A stretch of 64,000 nt of DNA from NCBI GenBank assembly GCA_045863395.1, contig BTVJ01000037.1, positions 1 to 64,000 on the forward strand. The letters run 5' to 3'. The stretch comes from Myxococcales bacterium. Its GTDB lineage: Bacteria > Myxococcota_A > UBA9042 > JABWCM01 > BTVJ01. Positions 38,770-51,337 of the stretch are shown piece by piece (position 1 is the stretch's first letter; each line of letters opens with the position of its first letter). Under the pieces are notes generated by a model. The model was not told where the DNA came from, did no database searches, and was given only the letters and a program-made list of their open reading frames with translations. The position numbers and the translations under genes were made by a program.

Positions 38770-40041
38770 ATGAGGTGGGTCGTGTTCGTGGGTCTGGCTC
38801 TCGGCGGCTGCGCGGGGGAGGCCCGACCCGGTGCTGGGGCGGATTCGGCGGTGGAGGTCGGCGCCGGCGATGGTGGTGCGTCCCACGGCGACGCGACTCA
38901 CGGTGACGCCGAAGGAGCAGACGCTGGGATGCCCTTCGACTGGTGCGTGCCAGACGTGCCCCCGGATGACGCCTGCCACGCCGCCAAACGGGACCCGGCC
39001 TCCGAGCGAGTCGCGCTGGCCACCGAGATCGCCGCGAAGCAGATGGCGCTCCACCCGGCCGAGTCTCTCGGCTGGGACTGGGGCGAGGCCGTGCTCCTGT
39101 GGAGCTTCGTCGAGCTGCACGCCGTCACCGGAGACCCCGCGATCCAGGACTACGTCAAGGCGTACATGGACGCCCACATCGCGCACGGGTTCACGATCTC
39201 CACCAGTGATTCCTGTGCGCCTGCCGCCCTCGCTGCGGCGCTCTATCGGCAGAGCCCGGACGACTCCTACGAGGCCGTCGTCGACAAGGCCCTGACCTAC
39301 CTCTCGGAGTTGGCGCTGCGCACGGACGCTGGCGCAATCAGCCACTTCGGCACCATCCCCGTCGTCTCCGTCTGGGTGGACTCCCTGTTCATGTTCGGCA
39401 ACGTCTGGATGGCCTGGTGGGGCGCGACGGGAGACGTGGCCTCGCTCGACGCGCTGGGGGAGCAGATCCGGGTCTTCTCGGCGCTGTTGCAGGACGACGG
39501 CTTCTTTCGCCACGCCTGGGGCTGGCCCGATGAGTCTCCGACGCCCGCCTATTGGGCGCGGGGCAACGGGTGGGTGGTCGCCGCAGAGGCTCAGTATCTC
39601 CGGGCCCGGCGCATCCGTGGCGAGTCCGACGCCACCGTGGCCGAGTCTCTCGGGCGACTCCTCGCGGCGGTGGGAGACGCCCAGGGCGATGAGTCGGGGC
39701 TCTGGTGGACCCTGCTCGACCACCCCGGAGACGCCTACGAGGAGACCAGCGCCTCGGCCCTGTTCGCCTACGGGATGGCGCGGGCGTGGCGCTCCGGCCT
39801 CGCGGGAGACGAGGTGCTCCCTCGTGTCGTGCGGGCCATGGTCGGTGTCCAGTCGCGAATCACACGCGACGGGGCAGGGCTCCCGGTGGTGACCGGCATC
39901 TCCGGGCCGACCACGGCGGGATTCAACGAGCAGTACGCGAAGGTGCCGCTCGTCGACGACATCTCCTACGGGGTCGGCGCGGTGATCCTGGCGCTCGTAG
40001 AGACATCGGGATTGCCGGAATCAGGAGGAGACCATGAGTGA
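38770..40041 (+). CDS. GH88/GH105-family glycoside hydrolase lipoprotein
   Basis: LALGGC lipobox; WDWGEA, VWVDSLFM, FRHAW, WARGNGW, YEETSASALFAYG. Confidence 0.88.
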   Translation: MRWVVFVGLALGGCAGEARPGAGADSAVEVGAGDGGASHGDATHGDAEGADAGMPFDWCVPDVPPDDACHAAKRDPASERVALATEIAAKQMALHPAESLGWDWGEAVLLWSFVELHAVTGDPAIQDYVKAYMDAHIAHGFTISTSDSCAPAALAAALYRQSPDDSYEAVVDKALTYLSELALRTDAGAISHFGTIPVVSVWVDSLFMFGNVWMAWWGATGDVASLDALGEQIRVFSALLQDDGFFRHAWGWPDESPTPAYWARGNGWVVAAEAQYLRARRIRGESDATVAESLGRLLAAVGDAQGDESGLWWTLLDHPGDAYEETSASALFAYGMARAWRSGLAGDEVLPRVVRAMVGVQSRITRDGAGLPVVTGISGPTTAGFNEQYAKVPLVDDISYGVGAVILALVETSGLPESGGDHE

Positions 40042-42229
40042 GCGGCTGGTAGCGGCGACTGTTGCCCTCGTGCTGTGGTCGGGGTGCGCGTCCGACCCGG
40101 CGGACGCTGCTGCAGGAGACACCGGAGCAGACAGCTCCGCTCCGGACTCCTCCGGTGCGGGCTCGGACATCGGCGCCGTCAGCGATGTGCCCGCGACCGA
40201 CGCAGACTCGTCCGAGGCTCTGATCGACGCTGCCGCAGACTCCGCGCAAGACGTTGGAGCCGCGGATGCCGCCGCAGACACGGCGCCGGACACGGGCCCC
40301 CCGTGGAGTCCCCTCCCGCTCGTCCCCTCGGAGGCTTGGTCGAACCGCAAGGCGGAGTATCTCGCCGCGTGTCACGCCGCGAGCGGACCCGGGTCCAACG
40401 CGATCTACGGCCAGGTGTGCCGCGTGGCGCTGGGCGGCGACCTGGACGAGGCCGCCATCGGCGCGGCGATCACCAAGCTCGCGAACCGGGAGGACACCGC
40501 CGACTTTCGCCTGGCTGCCCTCGTGCGGCTCCTCTACCTCGACGACCTCCACCACACGCTCCCACAGGCGCTCCGCGAGGAGATCGAGCAGTCCCTGCTC
40601 GGGTTCAAGTACTGGCTGTCCGAGCCGGGCCAGGACAAGATGTGCTACTGGTCGGAGAATCACCAGATCCTGTTCCACTCGGGCGAGCTGCTGGCCGGCC
40701 AGCTCTTTCCCGACGAGGTCTTTCCCAACGCCGGCATGACCGGGGCGGACCACGTCGCCCACGCCACCCCGCGGGTCCTCACCTGGCTCGACCGGCGGCT
40801 CCGCTTCGGGTTCTCCGAGTGGCACTCCAACGTGTACTTCAACGAGGACATCCCGGCGCTGGTGAACCTGGTGGACTTCGCCGCCGACGAGGGGATCCGC
40901 ACCCGGGCGGCCATGGTGCTCGACACCCTGGCGCTCGACCTGCTCGGCAACACGTTCAAGGGGCACTTCGCCACCGCCCACGGCCGCACCTACGAGAGCA
41001 AGCTGGTCGGCGCCCTGAGCGACTCCACGCGGGAGGCGGCCTGGGTGATGCTCGGCCTCGGGGACGCGCCGTCGAAGACCCACTTCTCGGCGTCCTTCCT
41101 CGCCACGAGCCCAAACTACTTCACGCCCGCGCTGCTGGAGGACGTTGCTCAGGCAGCGACCGGGGCCTTCGAGCACCGCCAGCGGGACGGCATCGCGGTC
41201 GCGGACGGCCCCGCGTGGGGCATCGGCTACACGGAGCCCGACGACGTGGTCTTCTGGGCGGGCATGGCGGCGCTGGCGGCCCCGCAGGTCGTGAACGGCA
41301 CCGCCGCGCTGCTCGACACCTACGACCTGTGGCAGGGCTTCCTCTTCGGCGATCTCCCAGACTCCATCCTCGGGGTCCTGAAGACCATGAAGGGCACCCC
41401 CCAGCTCGTCGAGCTCGTCACCGAGATGGAGGCCCTCTCGCGCGGGATCGCCCTGGAGGCGATGAGCACCTACACCTGGCGCACCCCCCACTACCAGCTC
41501 TCTGGTGCGCAGGAGTACAACCCGGGCTTCTGGGGCGCGCAGACCCACGTCTGGCAGGCCACGCTCGACGGGCAGGCCTACGTGTTCACCTCCGTCCCGG
41601 GAAACCTCGGGGATCTGGCCCCGGGGGTGGAGCTCGCCACGTCCTGGGTGGGCGGCTGGATGCCGCGGGTGACCCTCCACCGCAATGTCGGAGTCATCCA
41701 GTACCGCCACGCACCGGTGGACAGCTTCGAGAAGTACCTCTCGCTGGGCTACGTCCACGCCTGGTTCCCGCGCGGGGCCTTCGACGAGGTGAGGGAGGAG
41801 CCGCCGTGGGTCTTCGGCCGCAAAGGGGACGCCTGGGTGGCGCTGGCGGCGGACCAGCCGACCCGCTGGGCGGAAGACAACGACCACGAGCTGATCGTCG
41901 ACGCGGTGGAGGTCCGGTGGGTCGTGGAGCTCGGCTCCGCGGATGACGGCACCTTCGACGAGTTCGTCGCGGCGATGATCGGATCGGGCCTCACCTTCGG
42001 CGCGGGCGTCGCCTGGGAGTCACCGGCCCTGGGCCCGGTGACCGTGGGGTGGGAGACCAGACTCCGCGTGGGCGGCGCCGACGTCGACACGGGCCCGTAC
42101 CCGCGCTTCTCCAACGTCTTCGTGGAGCGCGCCCTGGAGGATCCGGTCACGGTCATCGAGAAGGACGGGGTCCGCCTGATCCTGGATGCGGACGCCGGCA
42201 CGCGCACGCTGTGGGAGGCCCCGGAGTGA
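40034..42229 (+). CDS. Uncharacterised large lipoprotein (possible polysaccharide lyase/heparinase-like fold)
   Basis: AGGAG RBS; LWSGC lipobox; D/A-rich linker; FKYW, YWSENHQI, GFSEWHSNVY, HGRTY motifs. Confidence 0.7.
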   Translation: MSERLVAATVALVLWSGCASDPADAAAGDTGADSSAPDSSGAGSDIGAVSDVPATDADSSEALIDAAADSAQDVGAADAAADTAPDTGPPWSPLPLVPSEAWSNRKAEYLAACHAASGPGSNAIYGQVCRVALGGDLDEAAIGAAITKLANREDTADFRLAALVRLLYLDDLHHTLPQALREEIEQSLLGFKYWLSEPGQDKMCYWSENHQILFHSGELLAGQLFPDEVFPNAGMTGADHVAHATPRVLTWLDRRLRFGFSEWHSNVYFNEDIPALVNLVDFAADEGIRTRAAMVLDTLALDLLGNTFKGHFATAHGRTYESKLVGALSDSTREAAWVMLGLGDAPSKTHFSASFLATSPNYFTPALLEDVAQAATGAFEHRQRDGIAVADGPAWGIGYTEPDDVVFWAGMAALAAPQVVNGTAALLDTYDLWQGFLFGDLPDSILGVLKTMKGTPQLVELVTEMEALSRGIALEAMSTYTWRTPHYQLSGAQEYNPGFWGAQTHVWQATLDGQAYVFTSVPGNLGDLAPGVELATSWVGGWMPRVTLHRNVGVIQYRHAPVDSFEKYLSLGYVHAWFPRGAFDEVREEPPWVFGRKGDAWVALAADQPTRWAEDNDHELIVDAVEVRWVVELGSADDGTFDEFVAAMIGSGLTFGAGVAWESPALGPVTVGWETRLRVGGADVDTGPYPRFSNVFVERALEDPVTVIEKDGVRLILDADAGTRTLWEAPE

Positions 42230-42465: not shown

Positions 42466-45400
42466 ATGGTCTTCGTGAGACGCCGCAGAGATCGACCCGA
42501 GCCACGGTCCGAGTCACGCCGGGCGTCGCGAGCCGGCCACGGCTCCAGTCACGCCCCCGGCGCGGCCCTCCGGCAGGCCGAGGCGGCCGCTCTCGTCGAC
42601 CGGCTCGTGCGGCCGATCACGGACACGGCGCACCTCGACGCGGAGCACATCGCTCACCTCATCGCCGGCTGGGTGCGCGCCGGCGCCATCACCCGCGAGT
42701 CGCTCCCCGCCTTGCTCGAGGTGATGCGGCAGGGCAGCACGCCCGAAGCCGCCAGCCTCGCCGGCGCGGTGGAGCGCCACCTGGCGGGCACGGACGCGGC
42801 CCCACCTGCTCCACAGGCCGCGGCGCGGCAAGCCTCGGCCGCCCGTCTGGTCCGCGCCATGGGGCCGCTCCTCGGGCTCACCCCCTCGGCCATCGACATC
42901 CGAACGGACCGGGACGCGAGCGCCCTGACCGCCGCCCGGGGCGCGCGCGCCCTGCAGACCGGCGCCGTGATCCACCTGCACTCCTCGGTGGACCCGGGCA
43001 CCGCCGCCGGCCGCGACACGGTGGCCCACGAGCTGATCCATGCGGCCCAGCGCGCCGCTCCGCCAGGCGCGTCGGAGCCGGCCCCGTCCCTGGCGGCGGC
43101 AGAGCGCCAGGCGCGCGCGATGGCTCCCGCCCTGGCAAAGGGAGGCGCGCCGTCGGTCGCCCTCGAGCCGCTGCCCGTGACCGCGCTCGCGGCGGACGAC
43201 GACCAGGAGCCGGCCCAGGAGCGCGCCTCGCAGGGCGTCACCTTGCCCCGGGGGACGGACTGGGACGTGGTCGGGGCGCGCGTCGTCGTGCGGACGAGCT
43301 GGCTGATCAGCCAGGTCCAGGCCGAGCCCGGGGCGTCTCCGCCCACCGCCGACGAGATCGCCGCGCCTGCCACCCTCGCCCTGTTCCTGCAGCGGCTCAA
43401 GGAGCGCGGCGTCCTCGGGTGGCTGACCGCGGACCAGGTCTCGCTGCTGTCCCGCGAGCTCTTCATCCCGGGCCCCATCGAGCGCGACGTGATCATCGCC
43501 TACGCGCTGCCCATGGCCGTCTACGAGCGCGTCGGCCTGCCACCTGGCGTCCCGTTCCAGTGGCACTTCGCCGGCGGGGGCGCCCGGTGCATCCTGAGCG
43601 CCGACCGCTTGATCCCGCCCGGCGCCTCGCCGGACAGCCACCCGCGCATCTCGCCCCAGCTCCAGGAGCAGATCTTCGACCGCCTGGAGCTGGCCACGGG
43701 GTACGTGCTGCGCGACGAGGCGTGGGCGTTCATCCGAGGGCGCGGCGCGCTGGAGCTGGGCTCGACGACGGTGGGCAGGCTCGGGCCGGCCTTCACGCTC
43801 ATCTACTCCCGCGAGGACATGGAGCTGCTCTTCGGCGCGGACATCTGGGAGAGCGTGCAGGAGGAGGTCGCTAGCGGCGACGTGACCGACACGCCGCGCC
43901 CACCGGGCGGCCTCACGCTGGATCCGGCGCTGACGGACGAGGATCGGGAGCTGGTGCAGCGCTTCCTCGCGGAGCTCACCCGCGGGAGCGAGGGGGGCGC
44001 GGGCGAGCGGACCACGACGATCACGCCCCACCTGGTCGCGGTCTGGCGACGGATCGACGCGCACCCGCAGAAGGAGCAGATCCTCGCCGAGCTGCGCCGG
44101 GGCGGCGGGGCGGACGGCGCGCCACTGTCCGCGCTGCGCTTCCTCAACGCCATCAACCAGGTGGAGCTCGCGGCCACGTACCGTGAGCTCGGCATGGACC
44201 CGCCGGAGGCCGACCCGGACAGCGACTGGCGGCCCATCCTCGAGGAGCCGGTCCGCGGGACGATCATCAACCGCTCCGACCTGCTCTACGCCGGCAAGGA
44301 GGGGCACTTCGTCTTCGAGACGGAGAACCGGGCCGACGCCTTCCGCGTGCCGCGGACCCGCGTGCGCTGGGTGGTCACCCCCAAGGACCGGCCGGCGGAG
44401 CACATCGAGGAGGGGCGCACCTACCACTGCGACCTGGACCCGCCCGACGTGTTCGAGGCCGACTTCGAGCACACGGGCACCTACACGGTCCATGCCTTCG
44501 TCAACCACAACTTCTACCTGCCGGCGCACTTCTCCATCGACGTGGAGGTGACGACCCAGGTGGAGCGCCTGCGCCAGGTGGAGGACACGGCCTTTGCCGG
44601 CTTCGGGCACGACACGTCCAGCGCCGCCCATGAGTTCGAGACGGCGCTCCTCGACGAGGTCGGCGCGGACCGGTTCCAGCACGGGCTCCTCACGCGGGGC
44701 ACCCTGCCGGACGGCTACGAGCGCCCCGACTTCGACCGGCGCATCGCCCTGCTCACGTCCCAGCGGGCCCGCCTGGAGGGCTTCATCGAGGAGCACGCGG
44801 GCAGCGCGAGCCCCCGGGATCAGGACATGGTCCGCTACGCCCGCGACGCCATCGAGGCCATCGACGCGGTGCTGACGGACGTCCGGGGCGAGCGCGCGCG
44901 CGGCGCCACCTTCTTCGAGGTGCGCGCGGCCTACGTGCCGGACCGCCCGGGCCTGCGCTCCGGGCCCCTGTCCCTGATCGCGTCGGCTCGCCGGGCCGAC
45001 GGCGAGATCGCGATCACCATCCACGACACGTCCCAGGTCTACGAGCCCGAGAACTTCACCTTCTCCGACACGGGCGCCACCTTCGCGGCCGCGTTGGAGG
45101 AGGTGTTCATCGACCTGTGCAAGGCCTACCCGTCCGGGCGCATGTCGCTGCGCGCCGAGGTCCTCGACGCCACCCTGAGCCCGACGACCGACACGCTCGG
45201 CTTCGAGCTGGACTGCGGCAGCTCGTGGGAGAGCATCCGCACGACGGTCTGGGACCCGGCGGTGGAGATCGCCATCAACATCGTCGGCGTCGCTGCCATG
45301 GTGTTCTTCCCGGCGAGCGCCACGGTCGTCTTCCCGCTGCTCGTGGCCTACAACGCCACCGACACCATCGCGCGCCTGGCCGAGGAGGGGGAGCGCGGCA

Positions 45401-47580
45401 CGCTGACCGCCGGGGACGTGGTGTGCGGCGTGGCGATGATCGGCATGGACCTGCTGCCGTACATCGGCCGGGCCAGGCCCTTCCTTCAGGCGGGCAACCG
45501 GGCCTTCTACGTCATCGAGGGCGTCCAGATCATGGGTCAGTCCGTGATCATGACGGCCCAGGCGCTCGATCAGATCGAGCACCTGCGCAACGGCCAGATC
45601 CGCGAGATCGCGGAGCTGCAGGAGCAGATCCGGCTCCTGGAGCACACGAACCCGTCCGATCCGCGGCTCCCGGGAATGCGCCGCGACCTGCAGCGCCGCG
45701 TGGACGAGGCCCGGGCGACCGGCGAGCGCGTGTTCGGTGAGCTGGCGTCCATGCAGGCGATCATCCTGGTCGGCGGGGCCGCGTTCCAGCAGATCGGGCA
45801 GCACGGCATGCGCACCCGCGTCTCCGAGCTCGGTGACGCCGGGATCCTGCACGACGTGCCCGGGTCCACGCCGCACTACGACCCGCAGACCGGGCGCATC
45901 GTGGCGGACGCATCGACGCTGTCGCGCGCCGAGCTGGACGTGCTCGTCGAGGCGCGCTCCACGGACATCGCGCGGCGCCAGCGGGCGGTCGCGGAGGTCC
46001 TGGGCGACGAGCGCGTGCGCCTCGAGCCCGCGGCGGGCGCCACGGAGACGCGGGTCCGCCGCTCCGGGGAGGAGGTCGTCGTCGAGGTGCCGGCCGACCG
46101 TCCGCTGGACGCCGTCCTCGACGACGTGTGGGCGTGGCGGGCGCAGCAGGAGGGCCGCCCGGGCACCGTGCGGCCCCACGGGGAGGCGCCTGCCACCGAC
46201 CGGACCGGGTCCCCGGTGTACGGCGCCGCGGACGTGGCGGCGCAGCCCCACGTGGCCGTGGGCAACCGCGTGGCGACGGAGACAGAGGCCCGCGCCGTGG
46301 TCGAGGCGCTCATGCGGGGGGACCGGGCGGCCCTGGCGGCGCTGGGGGTGGACGCGCTGCCGCCCCGCTTCGACCCGACGGCTACCGAGTGGGGCATCGG
46401 CCAGCTCGCGGATGGGCAGTTCATCGTGATCCGCGGAGACGGGGGCGCCGTGGACTGGGGGCACTTCCCCGGGGTGCGCCCCGTGTCCCACAGCCACCCC
46501 GCCGCGCCGTCGAAGGTGCTGCGCGGCGCCGACGGCGAGCCGGGGGCGCTGCGCTTCGAGGAGCTGCTCACCGCGTCCACCGCGCAGGCGTCCGCCAACC
46601 GGGTCAACGTGTTCCCGTCGGCCGCGGACGTGGCCTTCTGCGCGCGCTTCGGCGTCAACGGGCACGTGGTCCAGACGCCGTATCTGCACCTGGGCGGTGG
46701 GCGCATCGGCAACCCGGGCGACGCGGCCGGCCCGCGCGTCGAGTTCGTCATCGGGCGCCCCATGCGCGTCGGCACGATGGAGGGCTCGACCATCCCCATC
46801 TACCGCACGGAGATGACCGCCCGCGCCGGGGGAGAGGTCCTGTGGCGCGGCGACGTGTGGGCGATGGATCACCCGGCCATCGGCAGCATGCTCGACTTTG
46901 CGGCCCCGCCGTACCTGCGCGCGGCCTCCGACACGCCCGGGAGCGGCCGGACGCAGACCCGGGCGGGGCGGGAGCCCGCCGGGAGGGACTCCGAGCCCAT
47001 CGCCGACCGGGAGCCTGCCGCGGCGCGGGACCCCGATGCCGGAGCGGTCCACGGTGAGGTGGAGGTGCCGCTGCTCGCGTCGGACGTGCCGCCGCCGACG
47101 CGCCGCCAGCTCCGGGAGCTGCGCCGCCGCCACCCGCGGGGCACGAGCGAGAGCGAGCTGCGGGCCCTGTGGCTCATCGAGCACCAGGTCGCCACCCGGA
47201 GCGTCGTGTCCGGCGAGCGCGCGTGCGCCGCGCTGCTCGGCGTGCGGCGCGGGGCGCCCATGGTCGACCTGGTGCGCGTGCAGCGCAGCGGCCGGCTCGT
47301 GCCCATCGAGGTGAAGAACCAGACCGAGGCGCACCTGTCCGGCCAGGGGAACGCCGCCTTCCGCAAGTTCGAGAGCATCGCAGGGGGCTCGGAGATCGCC
47401 CGGGTGTCCCACTTCGAGGTGCTCATGCACACAGACTCGCGCCTGCCGCCCAACTTCCGCGTCACTGCGGGTGGGGTGTTGGAGCAGCTCGTCAGCGGGA
47501 CCTCCCGCTGGGAGCGCGTGCTCTTCGGCGCCAAGGAGGTCCGCGTGCGGCGCGGGGATCTCGGGGAGATCTCGCGATAG
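42466..47580 (+). CDS. ~1700-aa DUF4157 (eCIS-associated) polymorphic toxin-like protein with JAB-like and C-terminal PD-(D/E)XK-like domains
   Basis: GARALQTGAVIHL...GRDTVAHELIHAAQ; Ig/PKD-like segment; hydrophobic hairpin; EWG..SHSHP..FPSAAD; MVDLV..PIEVKN; start could be 42439. Confidence 0.8.
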   Translation: MVFVRRRRDRPEPRSESRRASRAGHGSSHAPGAALRQAEAAALVDRLVRPITDTAHLDAEHIAHLIAGWVRAGAITRESLPALLEVMRQGSTPEAASLAGAVERHLAGTDAAPPAPQAAARQASAARLVRAMGPLLGLTPSAIDIRTDRDASALTAARGARALQTGAVIHLHSSVDPGTAAGRDTVAHELIHAAQRAAPPGASEPAPSLAAAERQARAMAPALAKGGAPSVALEPLPVTALAADDDQEPAQERASQGVTLPRGTDWDVVGARVVVRTSWLISQVQAEPGASPPTADEIAAPATLALFLQRLKERGVLGWLTADQVSLLSRELFIPGPIERDVIIAYALPMAVYERVGLPPGVPFQWHFAGGGARCILSADRLIPPGASPDSHPRISPQLQEQIFDRLELATGYVLRDEAWAFIRGRGALELGSTTVGRLGPAFTLIYSREDMELLFGADIWESVQEEVASGDVTDTPRPPGGLTLDPALTDEDRELVQRFLAELTRGSEGGAGERTTTITPHLVAVWRRIDAHPQKEQILAELRRGGGADGAPLSALRFLNAINQVELAATYRELGMDPPEADPDSDWRPILEEPVRGTIINRSDLLYAGKEGHFVFETENRADAFRVPRTRVRWVVTPKDRPAEHIEEGRTYHCDLDPPDVFEADFEHTGTYTVHAFVNHNFYLPAHFSIDVEVTTQVERLRQVEDTAFAGFGHDTSSAAHEFETALLDEVGADRFQHGLLTRGTLPDGYERPDFDRRIALLTSQRARLEGFIEEHAGSASPRDQDMVRYARDAIEAIDAVLTDVRGERARGATFFEVRAAYVPDRPGLRSGPLSLIASARRADGEIAITIHDTSQVYEPENFTFSDTGATFAAALEEVFIDLCKAYPSGRMSLRAEVLDATLSPTTDTLGFELDCGSSWESIRTTVWDPAVEIAINIVGVAAMVFFPASATVVFPLLVAYNATDTIARLAEEGERGTLTAGDVVCGVAMIGMDLLPYIGRARPFLQAGNRAFYVIEGVQIMGQSVIMTAQALDQIEHLRNGQIREIAELQEQIRLLEHTNPSDPRLPGMRRDLQRRVDEARATGERVFGELASMQAIILVGGAAFQQIGQHGMRTRVSELGDAGILHDVPGSTPHYDPQTGRIVADASTLSRAELDVLVEARSTDIARRQRAVAEVLGDERVRLEPAAGATETRVRRSGEEVVVEVPADRPLDAVLDDVWAWRAQQEGRPGTVRPHGEAPATDRTGSPVYGAADVAAQPHVAVGNRVATETEARAVVEALMRGDRAALAALGVDALPPRFDPTATEWGIGQLADGQFIVIRGDGGAVDWGHFPGVRPVSHSHPAAPSKVLRGADGEPGALRFEELLTASTAQASANRVNVFPSAADVAFCARFGVNGHVVQTPYLHLGGGRIGNPGDAAGPRVEFVIGRPMRVGTMEGSTIPIYRTEMTARAGGEVLWRGDVWAMDHPAIGSMLDFAAPPYLRAASDTPGSGRTQTRAGREPAGRDSEPIADREPAAARDPDAGAVHGEVEVPLLASDVPPPTRRQLRELRRRHPRGTSESELRALWLIEHQVATRSVVSGERACAALLGVRRGAPMVDLVRVQRSGRLVPIEVKNQTEAHLSGQGNAAFRKFESIAGGSEIARVSHFEVLMHTDSRLPPNFRVTAGGVLEQLVSGTSRWERVLFGAKEVRVRRGDLGEISR

Positions 47581-48489
47581 ATGGGCTGGGACCTGACGGC
47601 GCTCGTGGATCCAGCGCGCCCCGAGGACACCGGTGCGCTGCTCGTGGCGTGGGCGGCCGCCTTTGGAGACGGGGTCGCCGAGGCCACGCTGCGAGGCGGC
47701 GCCATCGCCGGGGCGCGTCGCGCGGTGATCCGCGGCGCCGCGCAGGTGCAGGGGGCGCTCGCCGAGTGGGCGGCGGAGCACGTGCGCGACGACGGCGCGC
47801 TCGACGTGGAGCTGCTGCTCGACGTGGAGGGCGACCCCGACATCTGGCCCGCGCCCGTCGCCCTGGCCTGCGGACCACGGCACGCCGGACCCCAGGGCAC
47901 GGGGCGCCGCGTGCCGCTGGTGCTGGGCTTCGGGGACCGGCGCGCCTACGCGGAGGGGGTACGCCTCGCCGGGGGGGTGACCCTGGACGAGACCTTCGTG
48001 CGTCAGGCCCTGGAGGGGATGTGCCGCGCGCTGCGCCCGACGACCCTGGTCCTCGAGGAGGAGCAGGCTACGGGGCTCCCGCTCAACGCGCACCTCGTCT
48101 ACCACCGCGACGTGAGCGGCTTCGAGCAGGATCTGCGAGACATCGCCCAAATGACGCTGCACGGGGGAGGCGGCCTGGACGGGGCGCGGGCGCACGTCCC
48201 CAAGCTCTCCGAGGCGCTTCGGACCTTCCGCATCGTGTTCGCGGGGCGCGTCCCGGAGCACAGCCGCGAGCTGGTCCGCCTGCTGGAGGCGCACGCGGCG
48301 GCGGTGATGGATCCGGCCTGGTCTCTCGATCACGGCACGCTGGAGCGGGCGCTGCTGGAGTCGGAGGATCTGGACCTCTTCGCCGACGACGGCCACGGGG
48401 TGGGCTTCGCAGCGCTGCCGTTCCTGGAGGAGGTCTGCGAGGACCCCTACGTGGCGCTCCTGGAGGCGGCGGCGGGGGGGCGCTCATGA
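47581..48489 (+). CDS. Hypothetical acidic protein, putative immunity protein
   Basis: ATG directly abuts toxin TAG; no signal peptide; function inferred from position only. Confidence 0.65.
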   Translation: MGWDLTALVDPARPEDTGALLVAWAAAFGDGVAEATLRGGAIAGARRAVIRGAAQVQGALAEWAAEHVRDDGALDVELLLDVEGDPDIWPAPVALACGPRHAGPQGTGRRVPLVLGFGDRRAYAEGVRLAGGVTLDETFVRQALEGMCRALRPTTLVLEEEQATGLPLNAHLVYHRDVSGFEQDLRDIAQMTLHGGGGLDGARAHVPKLSEALRTFRIVFAGRVPEHSRELVRLLEAHAAAVMDPAWSLDHGTLERALLESEDLDLFADDGHGVGFAALPFLEEVCEDPYVALLEAAAGGRS

Positions 48490-49265
48490 GCGCACCGTGG
48501 ACGACGGGTGAGGGGCGCTTCCTGATCCTGCCGCGCCAGGCCGGGTCTCCCGAGCGCGGCTGCGGGCCCGGGTTCGACGAGGAGACGGGGGCCGACGTCC
48601 TGATCACCGTCAGCGGGCTGCAGGAGAGCACCGCGCAGACGCTGCGGGCCTCCCTGGCGCCGGACGTCCCCGGGGTGTCGCGGCTGCTGCACGTCGGCCC
48701 CGTCGACGGGCAGCCGCTCTGGGCGCTGGTGGAGGAGCTGCCGCCCGACGCCGCGCCCGTCGGCGAGCGCCGCGGCGACCCGCTGCCCACCGGCGAGGTC
48801 GCGCGGCTCGTCGCGCGGATCGGCGACGCCATCCGCCAGGCTCACGCCCGTGGGCGCCCGCTCGTCGGGCTCCGCCCGGAGCTGGTCTTCCGCGGCCCGG
48901 ACGCCGTGATGGTCGCCCCCCGCTGCGAGCCCTTCCTGACGACGGCCGCGAGGCCCTGTACGGGCCAGCTCCCGGTGTTTCCGCGCGTCTATCTGTCTCC
49001 GGAGGCGCTGGCGCTGCGGCCCGTGGACGAGCGGAGCGACGTGTTCTCTCTGTGCGCCATGGCCGCCGCGTGGGTGACGGGGGTGCACCCCTTCGAGGAG
49101 ACCACCCTCATGGCGCACGTCATGGCCATCGCCTCCGGGTCGCCGGGGCGTCTGCCAGACCCGTGGGACGGCCCGCTGCGTGCCGGGATGGCGCGAGACC
49201 CTGCCGCCCGGATCCGCGTCGACGCGCTGCTGGAGCAGGTCGCTCGGCTGGAGCACGACCCGTGA
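48486..49265 (+). CDS. Ser/Thr kinase-like protein, probable pseudokinase
   Basis: ATGA overlap; WALVEEL, QAHARG, LVGLRPELV in place of HRDLKPxN, YLSPE, DERSDVFSL, GVHPF, DPAAR. Confidence 0.75.
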   Translation: MSAPWTTGEGRFLILPRQAGSPERGCGPGFDEETGADVLITVSGLQESTAQTLRASLAPDVPGVSRLLHVGPVDGQPLWALVEELPPDAAPVGERRGDPLPTGEVARLVARIGDAIRQAHARGRPLVGLRPELVFRGPDAVMVAPRCEPFLTTAARPCTGQLPVFPRVYLSPEALALRPVDERSDVFSLCAMAAAWVTGVHPFEETTLMAHVMAIASGSPGRLPDPWDGPLRAGMARDPAARIRVDALLEQVARLEHDP

Positions 49266-51337
49266 CCGACGGAGAGCAGGCAGCAGGGCCCGACGCCCGC
49301 TTCCTCGCCGACGTAGTGCTGGCGTGGCTCTCGGCGCTGCTCGACGGGGCGGCCTCGGACGACGGCGCAGGGGCCCTGCGAGAGGAGTGGGGGCGCATCG
49401 TGGGGCCGGGTCGGAGCGATCTGGCGCTCACCCGCGTGGCGAACCAGCTCTCGCTTGACTCCGTCGACCAGCTCCTGCTGGTCCTGGCGGTCGCCCCGTA
49501 TCTGGACCCGCGCTTTCGCGACCGCTACCGCGCGCTCCAGCGCTCGGGCCTGGCGGACCGCTGCACGGTCGCCCTGGCGCTGGACCTGCTCTGGCCGGAC
49601 GGCGCCTCCCGTCTCTCTGCCTTGTCGCGCTTCGGGCGCGAGCGCCCGCTCCTGCGCAGCGGGCTCGTCACCCTGGAGCCCGCGCCCAACTCCACCGGCG
49701 ATGCGCTGGTCGACCAGATGCTCTGCGTCCCCCAGCGGACGGTGGATCTGCTGCTCGGCTCGCCGCGCCTCGACGAGCGCACGCGCCAGTATTGCGTCGT
49801 CGAGTCTGACCCGGTGCGCATCGACCAGGTCATCGTGGCGGAGGCGTCGAAGCGGGAGGTGCTCTCGCTGGTGCGCAACCACGGCGCGTTCCGGAGTCAC
49901 GCGCGCAGGCTCGGCTTCGAGCGGGCCATCCCCTACGGCCGGAGCATCACGATCCTGCTCGCGGGCGCTCCGGGCACGGGGAAGACGCTGTTTGCCCGCG
50001 CGCTGGCGTCCACGGTGGGCCGCCCCCTCATCCGGGTGTTCTCCGACAAGCTGGCGGAGTCGCAGGAGGCCATCGAGCCTGCGGTGACGGCGCTCTTCCA
50101 CGACGCGCTGCTCAACGACGCGGTCGTGTTCTTCGACGAGTGCGAGGGGTTGTTCGGACACCGCGGCACGAAGCTCGGGTTCCTGCTGGCGGAGATGGAG
50201 CGCTTCACGGGGGTGCTGCTGCTGGCGACCAACGCCCCGCAGGCCCTGGACCCAGCGCTGGACCGGCGCATCGTCTACCGCATGGACTTCGAGCTGCCGG
50301 ACCCGGTCGAGCGCGAGCAGATCTGGGAGCTCCACCTGCCGCCGGAGGCGCCGCTCGACGGCGACGTGGACCTGCCGCTGCTCGCCAACCTGTTCAACTT
50401 CCCCGGGGGGACCATCAAGAACTCGGTGCTCGTGGCGCTCAACAAGGCCATCGAGCGGTCCGCGGAGGCTCCGACCATCGACATGGGGCTGCTGCGCTCG
50501 GCGGCGGAGAGCCAGCTCCGCTACAACCTGGACGACTTCGCCGTGCGCAGCCGCGTGCGGCTCACCCTCGACGACCTGGTGCTGCCGGCCGCCGAGCGCG
50601 AGAAGCTCGACGAGATCCTGGAGGCCTGCCGCAACAAGGACTTCGTGCTGAACAAGTGGGGCTTCGGGGAGCGCCTCGTCACGGGGAAGGGCATCGGCTG
50701 CCTCTTCGACGGGCCACCCGGCACGGGCAAGACCCTGTGCGCCGAGATCCTGGCCCGGGAGCTGTCTCGGCAGCTCTTCCGCGTCCACATCCCGAACATC
50801 GTGAGCAAGTGGGTCGGTGAGACAGAGAAGAACATTGCCGAGATCTTCGGCCGCGCCCGCGCCACCCACGCGATCCTGCTCTTCGACGAGGCGGACAGCC
50901 TGTTCGGCAAGCGCACGGAGGTCAAGTCGTCCAATGACCGGTATGCCAACCAGGAGGTGAACCTCCTGCTGCAGGAGATCGAGCGCTTCGAGGGCATCGT
51001 GGTCCTGACGACCAACCTGTTCGGCGGGCTGGACGACGCCCTGAAGCGGCGCATCCACTACCGCATCAGCTTCCCCAAGCCGGAGCTCGCCGAGCGGGTG
51101 ACTCTCTGGCGGCGCCTCATCCCGCGGGAGGCGCCGCTGGCTCCGGACGTCGACTTCCAGGCGCTCGGCAAGGTCTACCCGTTCAGCGGCGGAAACATCA
51201 AGAACGCGGTGCTCCGCGCGGCCTACCGGGCGTGCGCCGACGGGGGAGTCCTGACGATGAGGCACCTCTCCGACGCGGCGCGCCTGGAGTGCGAGTCTGC
51301 GGGCATCCTGGTGCGGGAGGCGCCCGTGGTCGGCTGA
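49262..51337 (+). CDS. Double-domain AAA+ ATPase, Afp15/Pvc15-like
   Basis: GTGA overlap; N-terminal winged-helix-like region; GAPGTGKT/VFFDECE and GPPGTGKT/LLFDEAD; SKWVGETEKN, DRYANQEVNLLLQ. Confidence 0.9.
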   Translation: MTDGEQAAGPDARFLADVVLAWLSALLDGAASDDGAGALREEWGRIVGPGRSDLALTRVANQLSLDSVDQLLLVLAVAPYLDPRFRDRYRALQRSGLADRCTVALALDLLWPDGASRLSALSRFGRERPLLRSGLVTLEPAPNSTGDALVDQMLCVPQRTVDLLLGSPRLDERTRQYCVVESDPVRIDQVIVAEASKREVLSLVRNHGAFRSHARRLGFERAIPYGRSITILLAGAPGTGKTLFARALASTVGRPLIRVFSDKLAESQEAIEPAVTALFHDALLNDAVVFFDECEGLFGHRGTKLGFLLAEMERFTGVLLLATNAPQALDPALDRRIVYRMDFELPDPVEREQIWELHLPPEAPLDGDVDLPLLANLFNFPGGTIKNSVLVALNKAIERSAEAPTIDMGLLRSAAESQLRYNLDDFAVRSRVRLTLDDLVLPAAEREKLDEILEACRNKDFVLNKWGFGERLVTGKGIGCLFDGPPGTGKTLCAEILARELSRQLFRVHIPNIVSKWVGETEKNIAEIFGRARATHAILLFDEADSLFGKRTEVKSSNDRYANQEVNLLLQEIERFEGIVVLTTNLFGGLDDALKRRIHYRISFPKPELAERVTLWRRLIPREAPLAPDVDFQALGKVYPFSGGNIKNAVLRAAYRACADGGVLTMRHLSDAARLECESAGILVREAPVVG

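Follow-up and report, generated by a model that had tools for sequence, protein, structure and literature searches.

A probable satellite cassette of a remotely encoded contractile injection system in a Myxococcales bacterium, with a JAB-like toxin domain coupled to a pseudokinase

The stretch of DNA analysed here (the window; 64,000 nucleotides, positions 1 to 64,000 of contig BTVJ01000037.1 of the Myxococcales assembly GCA_045863395.1) carries a four-gene cassette at positions 42,466 to 51,337. The cassette combines a toxin bearing the DUF4157 marker of extracellular contractile injection systems (eCIS) with an immunity-like gene, a pseudokinase and an Afp15-like ATPase. The question it raises is what such a set of genes serves on this contig (C37), where searches for tube, sheath, cap, gp25, baseplate J and spike genes gave no match. 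The preliminary description of the locus, which had likewise seen no structural genes nearby, proposed either an orphan cargo cassette serving an eCIS encoded elsewhere or a stand-alone conflict system. We consider it fairly probable that the locus is an eCIS satellite cassette made up of a two-warhead antibacterial toxin, two immunity proteins and a loader ATPase. The open reading frames (ORFs) of 1704, 302, 259 and 691 amino acids (aa) all lie on the plus strand, and their junctions are as first described: TAG directly followed by ATG at 47580/47581 between genes 1 and 2, an ATGA overlap at 48486 between genes 2 and 3, and a GTGA overlap at 49262 between genes 3 and 4. A GGGAG sequence stands 4 nt 5' of the ATG of gene 1 at 42466. 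The features are as follows.

42466..47580, plus strand: gene 1, polymorphic toxin of 1704 aa (P0001), predicted eCIS cargo, from Pfam and seven aligned homologues
42847..43056, plus strand: DUF4157 / PVC-metallopeptidase domain of gene 1, PF13699, E 1.8e-11
44221..45900, plus strand: conserved central body of gene 1, unknown family, with matches in G001, G155, G311 and L035-L038
46243..46929, plus strand: internal warhead candidate of gene 1 with a JAB/JAMM-like motif, six invariant residues
47119..47577, plus strand: C-terminal warhead of gene 1, predicted PD-(D/E)xK fold, from an AlphaFold model and structure match
47581..48489, plus strand: gene 2, predicted immunity protein for the nuclease tip, 302 aa (P0002), from tip pairing in 7/7 loci
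48486..49265, plus strand: gene 3, pseudokinase of 259 aa (P0003), proposed immunity protein for the JAB-like domain, from kinase fold and linkage
49262..51337, plus strand: gene 4, Afp15/Pvc15-like WHD-AAA-AAA ATPase, 691 aa (P0004), PF22977 and two PF00004 stretches

Judged by its sequence, gene 1 is a polymorphic toxin with two candidate warheads, and we are confident that it is eCIS cargo. The DUF4157 domain had been placed at about 42860-43060, and PF13699 (eCIS_core) was found at aa 128-197, above the curated cut-off. The HExxHxxQ...E motif is intact (H188, E189, H192, Q195, E213), and H188, E189, Q195 and E213 are invariant columns in alignment A3 of gene 1 homologues; the N-terminus ahead of DUF4157 is charged and of low complexity. 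The seven aligned homologues have the N-terminal and central parts in common, while their C-termini are unrelated, and the toxins of loci L035, L037 and L038 combine a shared body with unrelated tips, that of L038 being of HNH type and followed by a SuFu-like gene (labels assigned by eye). The central body has no Pfam or PDB match and includes a hydrophobic segment at aa 930-964 with a hydropathy peak of 2.18; we infer that it is a delivery or translocation region. No PDB sequence relatives were found for the toxin as a whole, and an Atlas search with its C-terminal part returned nothing. Those homologues that carry names belong to Polyangia, Haliangium, Kofleriaceae and Hyalangium, which makes a myxobacterial host probable; one carrier, P0054, is named Hyalangium versicolor.

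Profile searches of the genome (G000), whose assembly is 97% complete, located eCIS structural genes on three other contigs: C80 (6320-19139) encodes a cap, two sheaths, two tubes, a CIS_tube-LysM protein and a hub, C90 (17194-18324) a spike OB-fold protein, and C18 (52867-58793) gp25 and baseplate J. The C80 block is internal to its contig, and none of the 16 matches to the WHD model PF22977 in this genome falls on C80, C90 or C18. The cassette is regarded as a satellite rather than a stand-alone system because eCIS genes are present elsewhere, on three contigs without an Afp15-like ATPase. Homologous toxins were found after Baseplate_J and DUF6519 genes (L036/37) and beside sheath and tube genes (G273:C1, L111); in L086, as in L036/37 and L111, the toxin lies in or next to an eCIS operon, unlike that of the window. 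All five carrier relatives tested have eCIS tube genes. Of the two readings first proposed, these results support the orphan cassette and disfavour the stand-alone system. As a side observation, a 1573-aa ORF without a Pfam match occupies the tape-measure position of C80.

Polymorphic toxins of the Photorhabdus virulence cassette secretion systems (PVC-SS) with DUF4157 and a CDC48-like ATPase were described by Zhang et al. 2012 (PMC3482391). According to the accessible parts of that paper, they share with gene 1 the N-terminal HExxHxxQ-E motif, variable C-terminal toxins including restriction endonuclease (REase)-fold and JAB domains, and the nearby ATPase. In that account, however, the ATPase accompanies the tail genes and many toxins lack immunity, whereas the present cassette is remote from structural genes. 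It also differs from PVC-SS toxins in its two warheads and two partner genes, neither pair matching Pfam Tox/Imm models. An immunity gene had been thought unusual for eCIS cargo; such genes are indeed uncommon, but occasional ones are on record in Geller 2021 (PMC8213781), and cargo near operons is treated in Danov 2024 (PMC11297309). The eCIS-associated toxins of the accessible sections of these two papers resemble gene 1 in the DUF4157 marker, in linkers of more than 1000 aa and in some toxin-immunity pairs; 88% of them lie within ten genes of an operon and no pseudokinase partner appears in those sections, whereas the window cassette is remote.

The internal warhead candidate covers residues 1260-1488 of gene 1. 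E1308, H1342, H1344, S1385, D1388 and H1400 are invariant in 27/27 aligned members, and the E-HxH-S-D motif occurs in all 28 loci of the motif table. This is the Tox-JAB signature listed in the part of Zhang 2012 (PMC3482391) available to us, and the domain is accordingly described here as a JAB/JAMM-like warhead candidate of unconfirmed fold. Like Tox-JAB, it shows the E, H[ST]H, S, D signature in toxin position; unlike Tox-JAB, it has no Pfam match (27 members), separates HxH from S by about 40 residues, is carried by DUF4157 proteins instead of RHS proteins, and has a pseudokinase partner. The domain is terminal in five loci and also in P0057, P0062 and P0063; 11 of 15 further proteins containing it are annotated with DUF4157, and a search of viral contigs found no such locus.

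Gene 3 is a pseudokinase, as first described: a PDB profile search indicates a kinase fold (best matches PknE/PknB, E 6e-13), with HRD replaced by LVG, DFG by PRC, and the beta3 lysine also lost. A pseudokinase was found near 26 of the 28 JAB-like domains, a link that spans at least three toxin bodies and four families. Within the phylum, domain and pseudokinase are confined to the same 4 of 401 genomes; the domain model was built with these loci, and the informative part of the result is that no further locus appeared. For a test set, both models were fixed and then run on 55 more genomes of one order, yielding 21 new JAB-like domains in 10 genomes, 20 of them with a pseudokinase after the regions had been fetched (weakest E 4.7e-11) and eight at the strict threshold. 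Among the pseudokinases adjoining JAB-like domains, the catalytic Asp is absent in 25/26, and DFG is present in none of the 24 (out of 26) that could be aligned there; four true kinases in the same stretches keep HRD, so that they can be distinguished from the adjacent pseudokinases.

The position of the pseudokinase follows that of the domain. In all five loci with a terminal JAB-like domain, the pseudokinase directly follows the toxin gene, starting -16 to +36 bp from the toxin stop, with a 4-bp overlap in three of them and one pseudokinase copy split; where another tip follows the domain, the pseudokinase stands behind a further small gene or forms the rear part of a fusion with it. Body-only loci (0/4) and tip-only loci (0/7, four of these being short contigs) have no pseudokinase. 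Pseudokinases fused to other N-terminal domains stand right after the toxin stop in L078, L110 and L112, and P0022 is a fusion of a pseudokinase with the gene 2 family. Gene 3 is thus very likely a dedicated partner of the JAB-like domain, and it is probably the immunity protein of this domain specifically. In two further loci (L107:6771-11972 and L108:4144-11238), a pseudokinase follows DUF4157 toxins and several small genes, and no JAB-like domain was detected; these pseudokinases may be either orphan immunity proteins or partners of a very divergent domain.

The C-terminal tip of gene 1 is predicted to be a PD-(D/E)xK restriction-endonuclease-fold domain. Its AlphaFold model has a predicted local distance difference test score (pLDDT) of 91.9; the best structural match is NucS (2vld), with an only moderate Z of 8.3 (root-mean-square deviation 2.7, 102 aligned residues), and the top 40 rows of the structure search are mostly nucleases of the PD-(D/E)xK fold. 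A Foldseek search agrees with this fold, yet gave no E under 0.001. Residues E1584, D1601, E1615 and K1617 are invariant in alignment A5. The tip has no Pfam match at E 0.1 and no NCBIfam match at E 0.01, and thus falls in no numbered Tox-REase family.

Gene 2 belongs to a family absent from Pfam and NCBIfam, with 23 matches among 1.84 billion representatives; its alignment comprises the query and 20 homologues (21 members), two repeat-driven matches and the fusion P0022 having been left out. Neither the tip nor gene 2 has PDB sequence relatives, and no gene 2 homologues were found in 60 relatives or in 400 genomes of the phylum. At all seven genomic loci of the family, the directly upstream gene ends in the same nuclease tip, only the last 50 tip residues being present in the upstream gene of L030. 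The carriers of this pair are unrelated: they include other DUF4157 bodies as well as a short protein from Bacillota that appears to have a signal peptide. Because the same tip stands directly upstream in 7/7 homologous loci, gene 2 is highly likely to be the immunity protein of the tip. The tip is basic (isoelectric point 11.4) and gene 2 acidic (4.8). A complex prediction for the two scored 0.60, against 0.00 for the best control, and is rated as weak support: the mark set for this score is reached by 116 of 157 solved pairs and 2 of 215 mismatched pairs, and only 18 of those 116 solved pairs, along with both mismatches, score 0.60 or less. The co-fold runs agree with one another in no less than 66% of contacts, and partner pLDDT never falls below 82.

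Tox-REase-5/Imm52 and TsiV-type pairs are alike in having an REase-fold tip, and the gene 2 model weakly resembles Imm52, TsiV and Imm64 in the Atlas (TM-scores mostly <0.5, under the Atlas naming bar); unlike those pairs, the tip and gene 2 have no Pfam match. The early labels of a multi-warhead toxin and an immunity-like gene are supported, and the tip and gene 2 appear to add a new nuclease-immunity pair to those known. Two side observations concern this family. In L031:9091-10918, the pair occurs on the Bacillota protein (298 aa), which shows exchange across phyla and export routes. Two gene 2 family members (P0019 and P0021, with P0016 and L034 in part) are fused to their own copy of the tip lacking ExK (36% and 28% identity), possibly a decoy or a built-in oligomerisation partner.

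Gene 4 has a WHD (PF22977) N-domain followed by two AAA stretches, both with Walker A and B motifs, and DRYAN at aa 559, which bears out its first description as a double-AAA, Afp15-like protein. The N-domain and D1-D2 AAA architecture is shared with the loaders Pvc15, Alg15 and Afp15, for which the accessible text of PMC11495950 and of bioRxiv 10.64898/2026.05.27.728243 describes loading that depends on the ATPase and makes use of a disordered N-terminal sequence ahead of DUF4157. Pvc15-type loaders occur, on that evidence, as one ATPase per operon, in contrast to the 12 dispersed full-length WHD-AAA paralogues of this genome. Half of the 12 have no toxin beside them; five are no more than about 6 kb away from one of nine DUF4157 genes, and a sixth directly adjoins the gene for a 2101-aa protein with a C-terminal ADP-ribosyltransferase domain. 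In G001:C319, the same order recurs, as a toxin (42%, with another tip), an immunity-pseudokinase fusion and an ATPase 61% identical to gene 4, while L097 and L099 represent a minimal cassette of JAB-tipped toxin, pseudokinase and ATPase. A quick, midpoint-rooted tree (the careful search being unfinished) places gene 4 as sister to the G001 ATPase, in a clade of 13 of which 11 stand beside a DUF4157 or large toxin gene; the one operon-adjacent reference included falls in another clade. Across 60 relatives, 12 of the 141 listed WHD matches lie within 10 kb of a listed DUF4157 match, against 1.5 expected under uniform placement, a comparison made on the best 150 of 245 WHD and 150 of 291 DUF4157 matches, in which several pairs represent one orthologous locus. 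None of the 141 lies within 30 kb of CIS_tube; this is not evidence for ATPase-free operons, because weaker operon-adjacent copies (G001:C73, G273:C1) exist outside the best 150 of 245. On balance, we lean towards gene 4 loading this cargo.

Several other loci touch on the ATPase and its relatives. The closest paralogue of gene 4 (55%), in G000:C46:6424-15925, is the one adjoining the 2101-aa protein, which has no DUF4157 match and is followed by a 293-aa gene. In G000:C50:10733-17479 and C30:56127-66192, ATPase and DUF4157 cassettes carry a CpXC (PF14353) zinc-ribbon gene in place of the pseudokinase. Three short WHD (PF22977) genes without AAA lie in apparent integrated elements (G000:C44:24828-25792, C44:50680-51650 and C24:68983-69986), each followed by a gene of about 105 aa and a helix-turn-helix-like gene. 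In L039, L041, L043, L044, L049 and L050, an ATPase and then a giant DUF4157 protein (2300-3800 aa) follow a 2-hydroxyacid dehydrogenase gene; this pair, present in several families, looks vertically inherited. Small DUF4157 proteins with peptidoglycan-binding domains, one also with an M15 carboxypeptidase, are encoded at G000:C19:24208-25440 and C24:15097-16599 and are likely cell-wall-directed cargo.

Taken as a satellite cassette, the locus could work as follows. The toxin would be made in complex with two immunity proteins, one for each warhead: gene 2 would bind and block the DNase tip, and gene 3, a dead Hanks-type kinase, the JAB-motif domain. By analogy with Alg15 and Pvc15, in so far as these are covered by the accessible reports, gene 4 would unfold the toxin via its N-terminal region and thread it into the eCIS tube, and this unfolding may also strip the toxin of its immunity proteins. 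After injection into bacteria, the tip would cut DNA, and the JAB-like domain would act as a metal-dependent nuclease or protease. In this scheme, the anatomy, the tip fold, the two domain-gene couplings and the eCIS genes are computed, while toxicity, binding, neutralisation and loading by gene 4 are inferred.

Several observations weigh against this scheme. Alignment of the JAB-like domain with Prok-JAB by hhalign gave probabilities of 0.8% and 2.3%, the domain has no PDB match, and a single-sequence model of aa 1261-1704 has a pLDDT of 40, its fold search returning nothing above Z 3.3. Intact JAB motifs (HNH in L101) occur without a pseudokinase in L036/37 and L101, the fetched stretch shows no JAB-like domain at eight of the 34 pseudokinase loci, and in L086 and L109 the pseudokinase is upstream of the toxin; moreover, the 21 test loci were drawn from 10 genomes, all belonging to one family, and are kin, not independent events. 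Regarding the ATPase, D1 of Pvc15 is degenerate according to the available text of PMC11495950, whereas gene 4 keeps both Walker modules. Cassette ATPases fall in three places in the quick tree, suggesting repeated recruitment, and an ATPase adjoins only 7 of the 26 cassettes (the window, L078, L086, L097, L099, L109 and L111), a count in which some fetched stretches end at contig edges. The idea that pseudokinase and ATPase jointly control the toxin did not hold, since the former tracks one toxin domain and the latter is found in a minority of such loci. Finally, the same genome contains a T6SS-like (type VI secretion system) cluster at G000:C11:89887-100897 (labels by eye).

The sparse ATPase neighbourhood, the 12 paralogues and the C11 cluster would all fit the possibility that the toxin and its two partners are real, with the ATPase beside them only incidentally or with the T6SS as the exit route of the cargo. 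This alternative, which does not exclude the others, is somewhat unlikely: genes 3 and 4 overlap by GTGA, the G001 ATPase has the same position and is sister to gene 4, the proximity of WHD to DUF4157 among the listed matches exceeds expectation, and the cassette has no VgrG or PAAR link.

The coupling of pseudokinase and JAB-like domain would be equally tight if gene 3 were a dedicated chaperone or loading adaptor, which folds the domain or hands it to the ATPase, rather than an antidote. The pseudokinase does lie between ATPase and toxin in L086 and L109, and adaptor or chaperone roles near eCIS cargo are discussed in the consulted sections of Danov 2024 (PMC11297309). We nevertheless find this unlikely in view of the downstream immunity slot occupied in all five terminal-domain loci, the fusions in L078, L110 and L112 and with the tip-immunity family in P0022, the orphan pseudokinases (8/34) and the 19 of 26 loci with no adjacent ATPase.

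A more specific version of the immunity reading has the JAB-motif warhead attacking Hanks-type Ser/Thr kinases or some kinase-like target, the pseudokinase shielding the producer as an uncleavable decoy of that target, and each ATPase paralogue loading its own cargo into a shared, split-operon eCIS. Hanks-type Ser/Thr kinases are abundant in these bacteria. We consider this combination improbable; if true, it would represent immunity by substrate mimicry.

JAMM domains are zinc proteases, and in most of the 28 loci the JAB-like domain is penultimate, ahead of a variable tip. It could therefore be a release protease that frees the C-terminal tip, with the pseudokinase as its inhibitor or timer and a single warhead in the toxin; processing peptidases placed before the tip are reported in the accessible part of Zhang 2012 (PMC3482391). 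There would, however, be nothing to release where the domain is terminal (the five loci, P0057, P0062 and P0063), and toxins with the same body lack the domain in L038 and L080-L082, which makes this reading quite improbable.

A stand-alone intracellular conflict or anti-phage system, independent of any eCIS and with a resident toxin under the control of ATPase and dead kinase, would suit the lack of structural genes nearby, the matches of gene 4 to IetA models and the weak matches of gene 3 to PD-T4-6 kinase models, but it is highly improbable, as the IetA (also spelled IteA) match reaches 152 bits against a 510-bit cut-off, only generic AAA and kinase cores are covered, 5/5 relatives tested carry tube genes, homologous toxins lie inside eCIS operons, and the exchange of tips and immunity genes resembles that of exported toxins. 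An assignment to the anti-phage systems IetAS, PD-T4-6 or MADS was also tried and rejected: the matches are to core domains only, MAD6 reaches 20 against 460 bits, and genes 1 and 2 have no match.

The G+C content of the cassette equals that of its flanks. These had been described as glycoside hydrolase-type genes, which holds for the GH31 gene directly downstream and the GH88 gene two genes upstream (both by Pfam), but not for the immediate upstream neighbour (40034-42229, 731 aa), which has no Pfam match. This neighbour, next to the GH88 gene, has no link with the cassette in any of the homologous loci inspected. Neither a promoter-like site nor a terminator following gene 4 was found. RNA contigs from four sludge runs in two studies extend over the flanks on either side just as they do over the cassette, and therefore show neither expression nor an operon.

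In the literature listings and abstract openings searched, no pseudokinase partner of a toxin domain and no myxobacterial satellite ATPase cassette was reported; the pseudokinases returned were mostly T7SS (type VII secretion system) YukC/EssB, viral and Legionella proteins. Both domain pairs are absent from Pfam. The class of system is known, and what the sequence comparisons point to as new is a coupling of JAB-like domain and pseudokinase that is tight and unexpected.

Kinase-derived proteins that inhibit a partner toxin include HipS and SidJ, but the former blocks a kinase and the latter is an enzyme. A catalytically dead kinase acting as an antidote would, if true, be an unexpected role for such a protein. 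The present results give a family of bacterial pseudokinases a specific role that is cheap to test, namely to partner, and probably to neutralise, a toxin domain with a metal motif that had not been described. They also bear on cargo choice and on how producers survive their own antibacterial eCIS cargo, an issue raised in the accessible text of Geller 2021 (PMC8213781). Cassettes that bring an ATPase of their own and lie far away from a split structural operon would be missed by searches based on operon proximity, and they would offer natural loader-cargo pairs for testing specificity.

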